Virus record (IMG/VR): IMGVR_UViG_3300010218_000100 | Coordinates: 1 to 37,595 of that record | Reading direction: 5' to 3' (one strand) | DNA from: a virus | Lineage: Duplodnaviria > Caudoviricetes | DNA length: 37,595 bases | Shown: positions 1 to 22,935 of the stretch, one piece after another | How positions within the stretch are numbered: position 1 is the stretch's first letter | Layout of the letters: every line of letters begins with the position of its first letter | Position numbers and translations under genes: made by a program | Notes under the pieces: model-generated | Databases searched by the model: none | What the model saw: the letters and a program-made list of their open reading frames with translations, nothing else | What the model was told of the DNA's origin: nothing

Positions 1-597
1 TTAGCCGGTCCTCAGGGGAAGGCGCTCGAAGGCCGGTTCCCACGTTGCCATCGCCTCGTTCTGAGGCACCCCAGCGGCCTTGCCGGCCACCACCGCCGCC
101 ACCGCCTCCGACAGGAGGCGGACGCCCATCGGCCCCAGCTCACGCCGCCACAGGCTAGTTGGGTCGTCCTCCGGCCTGATATGGCACCAGTCCTGGGCGA
201 TGATCGGGCCGGCGTCCGCGCGGTCCGTAAGCCAGTAGACCGTCCCGCCGGTCACCGACTCGCGCATGTGGATGGCCCACCGCACTGCATCGCGGCCGCG
301 ATGCCGGGGCAGCAGGCTGGGGTGGTATCCGATGGCACCAAGCCGCGCGCGCCGGCGGGCGCCGGTGGTGACGTAGCAGTGAGCGTGAGCAAGCACCATC
401 AGCTCGACGCCCGGCGGCACCCAGCCGGCGACCAGCTGCCGGCCGGGGTCGCCGGTGTAGATCCCGGCATCGGCCGCCGCGAGCGCCAGGCGATCCCCGG
501 CCGGGGCGGCGACAAAGGCCACCTCATGACCAGCGCCGCGGAGCGCACCGAGCACCCGCTCCCCGAGCCATTTTTGCCCCACAAGCATCAGGCGCAT
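1..597 (-). CDS. Formyltransferase-fold protein (Fmt N-terminal / 10-formyl-THF dehydrogenase hydrolase-like), 198 aa
   Basis: YHPSLLPRHRG motif and GGTVYW..D..D.G.I..Q segment with the catalytic Asp; no C-terminal tRNA-binding domain; overlaps the upstream gene end by 10 nt. Confidence 0.88.
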   Translation of the reverse strand: MRLMLVGQKWLGERVLGALRGAGHEVAFVAAPAGDRLALAAADAGIYTGDPGRQLVAGWVPPGVELMVLAHAHCYVTTGARRRARLGAIGYHPSLLPRHRGRDAVRWAIHMRESVTGGTVYWLTDRADAGPIIAQDWCHIRPEDDPTSLWRRELGPMGVRLLSEAVAAVVAGKAAGVPQNEAMATWEPAFERLPLRTG

Positions 598-1733
598 CGG
601 CTGGCTTCTCCCAAGTAGCGGAAGCCCTGGACGGCCCTCATATGGCCGCCGTGGCCACGGCTATTGATGGGCTTCAGCCCGTGCCGGATCGAGCTGGCGC
701 GGATCGACTCGGCCGACTTCGCGCCGTGGCTGCCATGAAAGGCGGCGCTCACCTGTGTCCATCGGCGGTCGCGGCGCAGGGCGCTGGCCAGCCCAGGGTG
801 GCTGGTATGGAACAGGGTGCGGAGCGGTAGCGCGTAGCGATTCTGGCCAAGGCGCCAACGCTCGCACATGGCGTTGAGGAACCGCAGGCCTACGCCGGCG
901 CCTTGCCACTCGGGCATCACCACCAGGCGGCAGGCGCGAGCCTCGACGAGACCAGGTCGAGTAGAGAAGCACACGTGCGCGACGAGCTGGCCGTCAACGG
1001 TGGCGACGTAGTTGGTGCTGCCGATCATCCGGGGCAGCTTCAGATAGTGATGCGGCTCAAATGCTGGCCAATGGCGCCAGTTGGTTTCCCAGATATCGAC
1101 GTCGATCGTTGGGCGGCGTCGAACCGACCCCCGATCGGCACGCTCGAAGGCGCCGGTGGCGGTGTCGAAGATCCAGTCCGGCTGCAGCCAGTCCAGCACG
1201 TCGTAATGGCAGGAGAGCAACACCACGCGGCCCGTGGTTCGCCGCCATGCCTTGCCAAACGCCAGCGCGCCGATCTTGGCGATCTGCCGGTCGATCACGG
1301 AGGTGAACTCATCCACGACCGCGCGCGCCGGGGCCTCGGCCACCAGCCGCGCCAGGCCGGCGCGGAACTGCTCGCCGTTGGACAACACCGGGAACGGACG
1401 AAGCCACGCGGGGACGCTTCCAAGGCCTACCGCAGCGAGGGCGGCGGTTGCCGCGTTGAAGTCACCTGCCGGGGCGATCGCGTCAATGATCGGCGCGTCC
1501 TTAGGCCACTTCGGATGCCACACAGATCGCGGCCCCCAAATGGCGCGGCCGAGGCTGGTTTTTCCCGATCCACTGGGGCCGACGATCACGCCGATCGACC
1601 AGTCGAAGTCGTCAAGCGGAAGGTCCGCCTGGAGCGAAAACGAGGCGCCGCTTTCGCAGTTGAACAGGGACTTCACGCGGGCCGCCCGGTAGCTGTCGAA
1701 GTCGGCGCAAGAGTGATGGATGTCGACCTTCAT
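588..1733 (-). CDS. ABC-type ATPase fused to a Mom-like GNAT acyltransferase, 381 aa
   Basis: Walker A GPSGSGKT, signature LSNGE, Walker B VVDEF, H-loop SCH; C-terminal FEPHHYL and GNAT motif A RLVVMPEWQGAGVG; start re-picked at ATG 1733 (ATGA overlap). Confidence 0.85.
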   Translation of the reverse strand: MKVDIHHSCADFDSYRAARVKSLFNCESGASFSLQADLPLDDFDWSIGVIVGPSGSGKTSLGRAIWGPRSVWHPKWPKDAPIIDAIAPAGDFNAATAALAAVGLGSVPAWLRPFPVLSNGEQFRAGLARLVAEAPARAVVDEFTSVIDRQIAKIGALAFGKAWRRTTGRVVLLSCHYDVLDWLQPDWIFDTATGAFERADRGSVRRRPTIDVDIWETNWRHWPAFEPHHYLKLPRMIGSTNYVATVDGQLVAHVCFSTRPGLVEARACRLVVMPEWQGAGVGLRFLNAMCERWRLGQNRYALPLRTLFHTSHPGLASALRRDRRWTQVSAAFHGSHGAKSAESIRASSIRHGLKPINSRGHGGHMRAVQGFRYLGEASRCA

Positions 1734-1921
1734 ACCGTCACCACCTTCAGCTTCTCGCCGGCGGCGTGCAGGCGTTTGTAAACCTGCTCCTGGTGGGTCT
1801 CGTTCTGGCAAATCACGATCACGCCGAAGCGCTCGCGATACTTGAATCCGTTGGCTCCTGGAGCCTTCGTGTTGCCCGCGGTTTGCCCGGCGCCGGGCGC
1901 CGAGGTCTTGCTGCTTTTCAT
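1730..1921 (-). CDS. Small hypothetical protein (63 aa), first gene of the mom-position cassette
   Basis: GGAGA RBS; ATGA coupling to the ABC-GNAT gene; predicted beta-alpha-beta C-terminus FGVIVICQNETHQEQVYKRLHAAGEKLKVVTV. Confidence 0.75.
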   Translation of the reverse strand: MKSSKTSAPGAGQTAGNTKAPGANGFKYRERFGVIVICQNETHQEQVYKRLHAAGEKLKVVTV

Positions 1922-1925
1922 GCTG

Positions 1926-2043
1926 TCTCCACGTATGAGATCGCTTCTACTTAGGCTCCCTCTCGCCGGTACCGGCTAGGGGCCTTGCTCGATCCACGCC
2001 CATCGTGGAAAGGGGTCGCGCTGTTGACGCAGCGCGATGCCCC
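1926..2043 (-). promoter_or_regulatory. Structured leader (three hairpins plus a weak SD-sequestering stem) upstream of the modification cassette
   Basis: Inverted repeats 2016-2023/2030-2037, 1993-1998/2004-2009, 1953-1985 (nested) and 1926-1929/1937-1940. Confidence 0.5.
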
Positions 2044-2050
2044 GAACTTC

Positions 2051-2512
2051 TTAAATTGCGGCTGCAGGCGCCTCCATCGCTGGCTGCAGCATCCATAGGT
2101 CTTGCGGGGTAACGCGGCGCAGGGAATCGGCGCGGAAGAGCGGCGATCCGGCGCGGTCAAACGCGTAAGCCACCAGCTCGCTGCAGAACCAAGAGTCGGC
2201 GTCCTTCCACACGCGATGCAGGCCGAGGCCGAGCACGGCGGTGTAGTCGTAGGGCTTACCGATCTCCAAAACAGCCGCGGCGATCACGACCGCCGGATCG
2301 CGGCAAGGCAGCTGGCTGATAGCCCAGCGCGGGTCTTCCGCCTGTCGCTTCGCAAGCGGCGTGCGCACAACGCCCTTGAGGGCCACGGCCTCGATCACGC
2401 TGTCGCCATCGATCAAGGCGACGTGCGACCAGGTCGACCAGCTGCACGCCCGAATCGCCCAGCTCAGGGGATTGGCCGGGTTGGTACAGAACAGCAGCGA
2501 GACCGCGCCCAT
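2051..2512 (-). CDS. Permuted papain-like NlpC/P60 amidase (YiiX/YebB family)
   Basis: WSHVAL His motif, IEA, G.PYD and WFCSELVA Cys motif in permuted order. Confidence 0.85.
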   Translation of the reverse strand: MGAVSLLFCTNPANPLSWAIRACSWSTWSHVALIDGDSVIEAVALKGVVRTPLAKRQAEDPRWAISQLPCRDPAVVIAAAVLEIGKPYDYTAVLGLGLHRVWKDADSWFCSELVAYAFDRAGSPLFRADSLRRVTPQDLWMLQPAMEAPAAAI

Positions 2513-21331: not shown

Positions 21332-22935
21332 TAGAGAACCCTCTTAGACGTCTTGAAGCCGGCGGTGATCGACACCGGCCGGTCGATCCGATCGGCATCG
21401 CGGCCGGCGCGGGTGGGCACCGCCTGGTAGGCGAAGATCTCCACCTCTTGGCGGCTGGCGTAGTGCATGAGCGCGATCGAGATCGCGGCGTCGCCGTGGC
21501 GCTGGCCACCGTCTTTGCCGGTCGATCGCTGGTCCGGCACGCGCGCCACGCCGTGGATCAGCTTGACCATGCGCAGGTCGGTGGCCACGTCCTTGTCGCG
21601 CGGCACCAGGATGGTGCCGTCCTCGAACGCGGCCTTGAGCGGCGGCATCTGCTCGCGATACCAGGTCTCGGAGAACTTGATCAGCTCGACGCGGTGGTAG
21701 CCGTAGCGCTGGGCGAGGAACTCAGCCACGGCACTGCCGTTGCCGCCGGCGTCGACCGCGGCCTTGATGAAGTTGGGCAGGCGATCGCAGATGAAGTTGA
21801 GGATCTGCTCCTGCTGGCGGTGCGGCATGTTCCGCAGCTCCAGCATGAAGGGAATGCGGCGGGTGAGGTCCTGCTCGATCTGCGCCGGCGTGATTACCGT
21901 GAGGTCACCGCTGCGCGCGAAGTCCTCGCCAAGCACGCTCTGCAGGCGCGGGTCGAGCCCGGCCAGCAGGGGCGCCACCTCGAAGTCCAGCCATTGCTGG
22001 ATGACCTGGTACCGGGCGACGTCAGGCTCCTTCTCGAAGCCCGCCGGGCAGGTGTAGCGCAGCACCGGCGCCACGTGCATGCGCGCCTCGACCAGTACGC
22101 CCGAAAGCCAGGCGCCCGAGCCCTGAGCGGGGACCACGTCCAGCTCTTCGCTTGCCGCATCGCCATACGTCTTGCGGATGGTCTCCTTCCACGTTTTCTC
22201 CGCCGCCTGCGACCATTCCTTGCCCTGGCGAAGGCAGACGCGCTGGTAGAGGCCCTCGGCGCAGGCTTCCTCGAACGAGATACGGTGCACGCGGCCGTTG
22301 CGCTTGCCGGCGCGGATGTCTTCGACCAGCTGGTTGAACGGGTTGTCGACGCCGTCGTGGGTGCTGATGATCCGCACCTTGCCGCCCCACATCAGCAGCG
22401 CGATGGCGGCCTTGAGCAGCTCGTCCAGCTGGCCGTGGAACGCGGCCTCGTCGATCACCACGACGCCCTGCTTGCCTCGCAGGTTCGCCGGGCGGCTGGA
22501 CAGTGCCACGATGCGGAAGCCCGAGGCGAAGCGGATGGTGTAAGTCTTGATCGCCCGGTCGGCGTTGCCCTCGTCGAACAGGTCCTCGCCCTCCTCGATC
22601 GCCTCGGCGGCCTGCCCGAAGATCCGCGCCCACATGGCGCAGGCCTCGATGTACTCGATGGCCATGTCCATGTTGTAGCCGATGTAATAGACGTTCATGC
22701 CGCCGGCGTCGCGGGCGCGACCAGCGATCAACACGTCGTCTCCGGCCTCCGCCCAGGTCAGGCCCGTGCGGCGGCTCTTCTCGGCGACCTTGAGGTCGCT
22801 TTGATCGGCCACCCAGCGCGCCTGGTAGGGCAGGAAAGCCGCCGGCACATCGCTGCCCGTGGTGCTGGGAAGGTCGGCGCGCAGCTGCTCGTGCAGGGCG
22901 CTTGTGATTGGGCGCTGGGCGAGTACTTCACTCAT
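21331..22935 (-). CDS. Terminase large subunit, Mu gp28-like
   Basis: LPYQ..W, EKSRRTGLTW, LRG.QG...IDEAAF, G.DFAR..D and HGD motifs. Confidence 0.96.
   Translation of the reverse strand: MSEVLAQRPITSALHEQLRADLPSTTGSDVPAAFLPYQARWVADQSDLKVAEKSRRTGLTWAEAGDDVLIAGRARDAGGMNVYYIGYNMDMAIEYIEACAMWARIFGQAAEAIEEGEDLFDEGNADRAIKTYTIRFASGFRIVALSSRPANLRGKQGVVVIDEAAFHGQLDELLKAAIALLMWGGKVRIISTHDGVDNPFNQLVEDIRAGKRNGRVHRISFEEACAEGLYQRVCLRQGKEWSQAAEKTWKETIRKTYGDAASEELDVVPAQGSGAWLSGVLVEARMHVAPVLRYTCPAGFEKEPDVARYQVIQQWLDFEVAPLLAGLDPRLQSVLGEDFARSGDLTVITPAQIEQDLTRRIPFMLELRNMPHRQQEQILNFICDRLPNFIKAAVDAGGNGSAVAEFLAQRYGYHRVELIKFSETWYREQMPPLKAAFEDGTILVPRDKDVATDLRMVKLIHGVARVPDQRSTGKDGGQRHGDAAISIALMHYASRQEVEIFAYQAVPTRAGRDADRIDRPVSITAGFKTSKRVL

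Follow-up and report, generated by a model that had tools for sequence, protein, structure and literature searches.

Which reaction would be carried out by a cassette of three overlapping genes that closes a Mu-type provirus at the end of the genome, where Mu itself carries com and mom? The cassette lies at one end of the 37.6-kb provirus record IMGVR_UViG_3300010218_000100 (37,595 nt; the whole stretch analysed is hereinafter designated the window), which shows on its minus strand the Mu-type order of repressor, transposase, MuB, late activator, lysis, head and contractile tail genes. It encodes a small basic protein, an ABC ATPase fused to a GNAT domain (hereinafter designated ABC-GNAT) and a formyl-fold protein, and was originally predicted to be a new system for acylating the bases of phage DNA. 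Our analysis indicates that the cassette is a real and very widespread module which, if confirmed in function, would add a further form to the base modifications built on a GNAT. As judged from the sequences, its moderately probable activity is the ATP-dependent acylation of a base in DNA, with acyl-coenzyme A (acyl-CoA) as the donor.

Part of this idea has a history. The prediction concerning paired ABC and GNAT domains reportedly goes back to Iyer, Zhang, Burroughs and Aravind in 2013. In a passage of PMC7824862, a GNAT coupled with an ABC ATPase is predicted to place on a DNA base an acyl modification that is uncharacterised; the original description allowed that such fusions might have been noted computationally, and ‘new system’ was an overstatement because this earlier prediction exists. 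The window shares with that predicted nucleobase-acylation system the same domain pair and the same predicted role, and its ABC-GNAT matches Tenacibaculum pT24, the example phage of the paper, at E 1e-33 with 58% coverage. It differs in that the passage of PMC7824862 names no formyl-fold partner, small adaptor domain or com linkage. The word ‘formyl’ occurs 0 times in the main text of that paper, and literature searches returned no experimental study of the cassette and, in the passages retrieved, no mention of a formyl partner, with supplements, which may describe one, outside the search.

A widespread cassette in a com-linked position

All three genes are on the minus strand. The small gene (1730..1921) encodes 63 residues assigned to phrog_28816, the ABC-GNAT gene (588..1733) encodes 381 residues from the ATG at 1733 (PHROG 11143, E 2e-152; Pfam ABC_tran and GNAT), and the third gene (1..597) encodes 198 residues (PHROG 9240; Pfam Formyl_trans_N). 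Overlaps of 4 nt (ATGA) and 10 nt join them, in agreement with the description of three coupled reading frames at the end of a Mu-like provirus. A longer middle gene starting from the TTG at 1811 (407 residues) was rejected, as relatives align from the ATG at 1733. The cassette had been taken for the last unit after the tail fibre; it does end the record, but two genes intervene, the glycine-rich tail fibre gene being followed by a tail-assembly-like gene and a C92 peptidase gene. Because the record stops at the third gene's stop codon, the Mu right end and anything downstream lie outside view.

Relatives of the cassette are numerous. When 8000 proteins were scored, 7059 passed E 1e-10 for the ABC-GNAT family; the family's patterns are estimated to occur in 3800 viral stretches and in 1400 from prokaryotic genomes. 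They are mostly found in phages, cultured ones included, as had been expected of a phage DNA-modification locus. Among bacterial-genome loci of at least 8 kb (n=63), 33 contain a virion or packaging gene from a 36-protein marker set and 5 more contain one by PHROGs, and 55 of the 63 contain a virion or packaging gene, com or ParB. Gene order is also maintained: the small domain lies directly upstream of ABC-GNAT in 175 of the 180 loci with room (in four of the remaining five it occurs at a greater distance upstream), and the formyl-fold gene lies directly behind ABC-GNAT in 141 of 167 loci, across several bacterial phyla. These counts derive from 244 loci, reduced to 185 non-redundant ones at <90% identity, the first 84 of which supplied the small-domain profile.

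The link to Mu is most evident upstream. Of the 174 loci with room, 80 have a homologue of the Com zinc finger no more than 900 nt upstream of the cassette, and Mu Com matches a profile of these homologues at E 5e-17. An unannotated com homologue was also noticed in phage phiE255, at L001:5689-5817 (record 21362-21490), upstream of gp28-gp30. We further surveyed the genes behind com, taking the best 80 of 520 confirmed matches, 78 of which have downstream room, and typing cluster representatives by Pfam. The gene behind com is a DNA methylase in 71 loci (four clusters), Mom in 1, the cassette in 4 and unresolved in 2, consistent with published passages in which methylases replace mom at a com-linked position (PMC3299994). 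The survey was seeded mostly with com from cassette loci, so that 4/78 is a biased frequency and only the exclusivity, for which a neighbourhood survey had been proposed, is informative: 76 of 78 loci hold a methylase, Mom or the cassette.

The window's cassette had been placed in a ‘com-mom slot’. The position is that of a DNA-modification slot, as indicated by com upstream in relatives, by the survey and by a retained leader, but the window itself has no com. Neither a six-frame profile search nor Pfam detected com in the window or record, and a degenerate copy in 1922-2050 was rejected after no match was obtained in six frames (stops read as X) or by Pfam. Searches of the record likewise detected no Mom, N6/N4 methylase or Dam-type methylase, and no cytosine-5 methylase appears among its 43 PHROGs-typed open reading frames, no profile search having been aimed at that family.

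The three proteins

The ABC-GNAT protein comprises an ABC-ATPase domain (residues ~1-205) and an acyl-CoA-type GNAT domain (residues ~210-376). Its predicted structure has a pLDDT of 91.5 and, in VIA fold comparisons, reaches Z values of up to 14.6 with ABC nucleotide-binding domains and of 14.5 with generic acetyltransferases; the Pfam Acetyltransf_1 match exceeds its cut-off, and Foldseek with the two-domain model gives only ABC proteins among the matches listed. We scored residue conservation over 92 diverse relatives. In the ABC half, K58 of Walker A, the signature L117-S118-x-G120 (LSNGE in the window), D141-E142 of Walker B, S145 and the H-loop H176 are invariant in 92/92, and the D-loop D148 is kept in 91/92. 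The ATPase is probably active, because the Walker A lysine, signature, Walker B Asp-Glu and H-loop histidine do not vary. The motif set, which had been claimed to be complete, is not: no Q-loop glutamine is conserved at residues 70-85 among the 92 relatives, and W76 and D84 are conserved there instead. The claim that the ATPase lacks a transmembrane partner held. None of the three cassette proteins contains a transmembrane segment (maximum 19-residue hydropathy 1.36) and no permease appears among the typed recurrent neighbour clusters, and a role as a transporter subunit was rejected, no membrane partner having been found in either place.

In the GNAT half, Y230, R269, Q277 and G278 are invariant (92/92), H229 is kept in 91/92 and G280 in 89/92. 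The HHYL (residues 228-231) and QGAGVG (residues 277-282) motifs are present as described, the latter within a canonical PEWQGxGxG loop of the Q/RxxGxG/A acyl-CoA type. An acyl-CoA donor rather than an aminoacyl-tRNA is very probable because this QxxGxG loop is canonical. The GNAT half is also basic, with a net charge of +8 or more in 90/92 relatives; its median is +13, whereas the ABC half has a median of -3 and complete Mom proteins one of +18.

The protein had been called Mom-like, which as a statement of family membership does not stand: there is no family match, the acyl-CoA loop is kept and the HY motif is weakly shared. ABC-GNAT has no Mom match in Pfam or PHROGs at E 0.1 (Mu Mom itself gives E 2e-75), and BLASTP against Mu Mom gives E 0.17. 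Mom (8bv8) and TmcA are both outside the best 50 VIA matches listed for the two-domain model, a listing that by itself speaks neither for nor against a structural likeness. H229-Y230 falls in register with Mom H58-Y59 within a profile alignment (PF25680) that is itself non-significant (probability 0.67%, E 0.086), which counts against the proposed acylation of DNA. H58-Y59 is required for Mom activity, according to passages of PMC13219725. R269 may be the equivalent of the essential Mom R111, given its place just before the loop. The Mom loop PRN(S/T)ES with S124, together with the D149 and R151 region, columns conserved in 115 Mom sequences, is unmatched in ABC-GNAT. Mom modifies adenine in a Gly-tRNA-dependent manner (passages of PMC13219725), and an acyl-CoA donor is the more likely one for ABC-GNAT because Mom uses Gly-tRNA and has a different loop. 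The resemblance to Mu com-mom consists of the end-of-genome position, the frequent com upstream in relatives, the GNAT fold, the basic surface and, tentatively, the weakly aligned HY motif; unlike Mom, the cassette has a CoA-type loop, a fused ATPase and extra partners, and in the window it has no com.

TmcA offers a second comparison. It carries an ATPase domain joined to a GNAT. The enzyme acetylates cytidine N4 in tRNA from acetyl-CoA, as described in passages of PMC13219725. Both proteins combine an ATPase with an acyl-CoA GNAT, and both would act on a poorly nucleophilic base amine, whereas the TmcA ATPase is helicase-like and that of the cassette is an ABC ATPase and phage-borne.

The third protein was predicted to be a stand-alone formyltransferase domain. 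It has the Formyl_trans_N fold and stands alone, but does not look like an ordinary amine formyltransferase; judged by sequence and fold, it is closest to a stand-alone enzyme using 10-formyl-tetrahydrofolate (10-formyl-THF), of the type of the FDH (ALDH1L1) hydrolase domain. By phmmer it matches the FDH domain at E 1e-25, compared with 4e-11 for ArnA/Fmt, and FDH takes Foldseek ranks 1-5. Its H92-S94-D128 triad aligns with the His-Ser-Asp of FDH, and within the HxSLLPxxxG motif and catalytic aspartate, H92, P93, S94, L96, P97, G101 and D128 are invariant in 85 aligned sequences. The catalytic asparagine two residues before the histidine, present in E. coli Fmt and PurN, is replaced by Gly90 in the window and occurs in none of the 140 parsed relatives. 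Passages of PMC4388273 state that this asparagine is present in Fmt, ArnA and GART and that FDH has Ile104 in its place; most third-gene members have glycine there, and the shorter third protein of Bacteroidetes-type cassettes has isoleucine at this diagnostic position. According to passages of PMC6802093, the formyl group is handed by FDH to the thiol of a pantetheine, and formation of formyl-CoA in the same manner is proposed for HypX. The third protein thus resembles the FDH N-terminal domain and HypX, its closest solved relative by sequence and fold having the same triad and the same lack of asparagine; it differs in standing alone at 198 residues, without C-terminal subdomain, carrier domain or dehydrogenase. 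Two existing labels were set aside: ‘PurN/auxiliary metabolic gene’ is below cut-off, as are all NCBIfam scores for the third protein, and lacks the asparagine, and the ‘tRNA-methyltransferase’ label on Gordonia gene 3 belongs to what is actually a formyl-fold homologue.

The small protein consists largely of a conserved C-terminal domain of ~45 residues; ESM Atlas places it in unnamed clusters only, and its structure model is of low confidence. In 44 of 185 loci, none of which also has com, the same domain makes up the C-terminal end of a ParB-N protein, and examples of this form adjoin terminase genes, as in Gordonia phages. Among 150 representatives, 7 are single-chain ParB-ABC-GNAT fusions (P0282, P0290, P0326, P0349, P0359, P0363 and P0373), with the small domain in between in 6 of the 7. 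Longer representatives (P0335, P0356, P0369 and P0384) appear to hold extra ATPase or other domains. The near-constant adjacency, the ParB fusion and the occurrence inside fusion proteins support a functional partnership of small domain and ABC-GNAT, and the small protein is likely an activator or adaptor of ABC-GNAT. A precedent is found in passages of PMC13229309, in which a DNA-modifying dioxygenase is activated by a phage ParB whose C-terminal domain is essential. As in these ParB-dependent thymine dioxygenases, where the ParB protein is required for activity, a ParB-N protein with a small C-terminal domain stands beside an enzyme; by contrast, the enzyme is a different one, the window has the C-terminal domain alone, and the likeness noted is one of gene arrangement.

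Proposed reaction and its alternatives

A formyl-CoA supplier beside an acyl-CoA GNAT would be the simplest joint reading of the cassette. Late in infection, the three genes would be expressed as a DNA-modification unit, and ABC-GNAT with the small protein would use ATP to acylate an exocyclic base amine in the phage's own DNA, a CoA thioester being the source of the acyl group. ATP-driven closure of the ABC dimer may grip or distort the DNA, by analogy with the ATPase and GNAT pairing of TmcA. The third protein would supply the donor as a formyl-thioester (formyl-CoA), and acetyl-CoA is likely the default donor where the third gene is absent. The modification would serve as protection against host restriction, and silencing in the lysogen may involve the leader and an antisense RNA, in the window without Com. 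Different parts of this scheme deserve different degrees of trust: DNA is, from the gene context and protein features, a fairly probable target, and formyl as the group transferred by three-gene versions is a tentative and rather doubtful assignment. The full chain, in which phages across many phyla use a stand-alone FDH-type enzyme to make a formyl-thioester, a GNAT driven by its ABC ATPase to install N-formyl bases in double-stranded DNA, an acetyl group upon loss of one gene, a ParB-derived 45-residue domain as activator and, in the window, antisense RNA gating without Com, is as a whole somewhat unlikely.

Several observations weigh against the proposed acylation of DNA. In structure, the GNAT half is matched best by generic acetyltransferases of small molecules and proteins. 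Passages of PMC13219725 describe adenine acylated at N6 as unstable, so that the modified base may instead be cytosine or guanine, or the mark a transient one. The VIA preference of the third protein for FDH (Z 27.8) over Fmt (Z 26.5) has a margin of only 1.3 Z units. At 8 of the 63 bacterial-genome loci, virion marker, com and ParB were all not found. Furthermore, the formyl-fold gene is absent from 26/167 loci, has been repeatedly lost or gained (16 changes on a 160-row tree, at least 8 of them forced) and occurs in 0 of 9 whole viral records tested, 4 of which are at least 90% complete. Because it is missing from these loci, changes repeatedly and is absent from near-complete records, the formyl-fold gene is not needed for the core reaction, and since its absence is scattered and real in whole records, the core is the small domain together with ABC-GNAT. 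In related phages without the formyl-fold gene (L060, L062 and L079), an unannotated gene of 71-72 residues takes its place, before the terminase genes.

The generic structural matches, among them RimI and Naa types, also suit an unlikely explanation in which the GNAT acylates a protein or RNA (a host defence protein, RNA polymerase or tRNA) as counter-defence or takeover, the com slot merely providing tight late control of toxic genes. TmcA, the precedent for an ATPase with a GNAT, acts on tRNA; phage GNATs acting on host proteins are described in passages of PMC7824862; and the small gene is tagged ‘acr candidate’ in Porphyromonas phage records, by prediction tools only (passages of PMC10367356). 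However, all other resolved com-slot occupants are DNA-modifying enzymes (72/72), the ParB linkage fits a known phage DNA-modification setting, and assignment of the cassette to a known defence system was rejected, as PADLOC matches are restricted to Walker A.

Other alternatives concern the third gene. It could be a metabolic accessory, a 10-formyl-THF hydrolase that frees tetrahydrofolate while ABC-GNAT simply acetylates from acetyl-CoA, an explanation compatible with DNA as the target. Passages of PMC4388273 describe the isolated FDH domain as acting as a hydrolase when thiol is present, and the gene is dispensable; its conserved place directly behind ABC-GNAT across phyla and the presence of ABC-GNAT in 14/14 annotated phage records with a strong third-gene match (E below 1e-23) nonetheless make this improbable. 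Still less probable is a two-step chemistry of the Mom kind, in which the GNAT would transfer an aminoacyl group from a charged tRNA and the third gene would then formylate the free amine on the base. Such a route would draw on the HY motif in its weak register with Mom, on the Gly-tRNA used by Mom and on the fact that the formyltransferase fold normally acts on amines, but the conserved CoA-binding loop, the unmatched S124, D149 and R151 region and the absence of the amine-formyltransferase asparagine from 140/140 relatives all argue against it.

If ABC-GNAT does acylate DNA, it would represent one of the commonest unexplored base modifications of phages, with consequences for the evasion of restriction and CRISPR and for how phage DNA is sequenced. 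By virtue of the FDH-type active site, a formerly vague prediction becomes specific (formyl-CoA as donor; +28 rather than +42 Da), and the existence of cultured carriers, such as Gordonia phage Axumite and Pseudomonas phage Komp_PAO1_1, makes virion DNA directly analysable. An enzyme-installed N-formyl DNA mark, if true, would be one of which our literature searches found no example.

Leader element and neighbouring genes

A folded stretch of 130 nt (folding z -3.2) separates the peptidase gene from the small gene and contains a structured leader at 1936..2049 on the minus strand, directly before the small gene. The leader is a match to a covariance model of the com-leader type, built from 24 com leaders with the window sequence excluded; nothing else in the window scores higher, and both strand and location are as expected, but the match is weak (12.7 bits, E about 0.026), a further point against the regulatory part of the scheme. 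The element is a conserved structure of ~140 nt that precedes com, and hence also the methylase genes behind com. The model finds it before com in 57/61 loci, a few of the 61 sharing a contig with a training sequence, and in 10/13 com-less cassette loci, with covariation in 9/13 pairs of the leader stems. Examples include L334:2459-2600, L344:2460-2600 and 65 further loci. There is no Rfam match at the leader, and the element was found neither ahead of Mu com (L088) nor in L345, the single com-mom locus tested. In seven loci (L169, L175, L181, L183, L196, L230 and L072), the leader stands directly before the small gene without com; they are grouped on the tree (SH-aLRT 85), and the closest relative is L169, at 80% identity.

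The opposite strand of the leader carries a predicted antisense small RNA gene (1952..2050, plus strand), with a -10-like TAGGCT at 1952-1957, a multi-stem fold of ~90 nt and a GC-rich terminal hairpin. Over 67 matches, the three columns of the antisense TAnnnT hexamer are conserved in 58, 67 and 67, and in 35 of 40 cases tested the better fold is that of the antisense rather than the sense strand. The leader probably encodes an antisense small RNA, as suggested by this hexamer and fold. A sigma-70 consensus scan of 1-2600 passed no promoter, and the -35 element of the antisense promoter is not evident in the window.

Bacteroidetes-type cassettes (L004:4600-4890, L071, L076, L238, L243, L245 and L246) have a different leader upstream of the small gene, a long inverted repeat, with no Rfam match for the four tested. 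In two Bacteroidetes loci (L242:2476-3735 and L247:5540-6799), the cassette is preceded upstream by a gene for a reverse transcriptase, which may belong to a diversity-generating retroelement. The C92 peptidase gene of the window (2051-2512, minus strand), a permuted papain-like type between the tail genes and the leader, has a same-PHROG member at the equivalent position in 6 related loci, and its PHROG label (enoyl-CoA hydratase-like) conflicts with the Pfam assignment.

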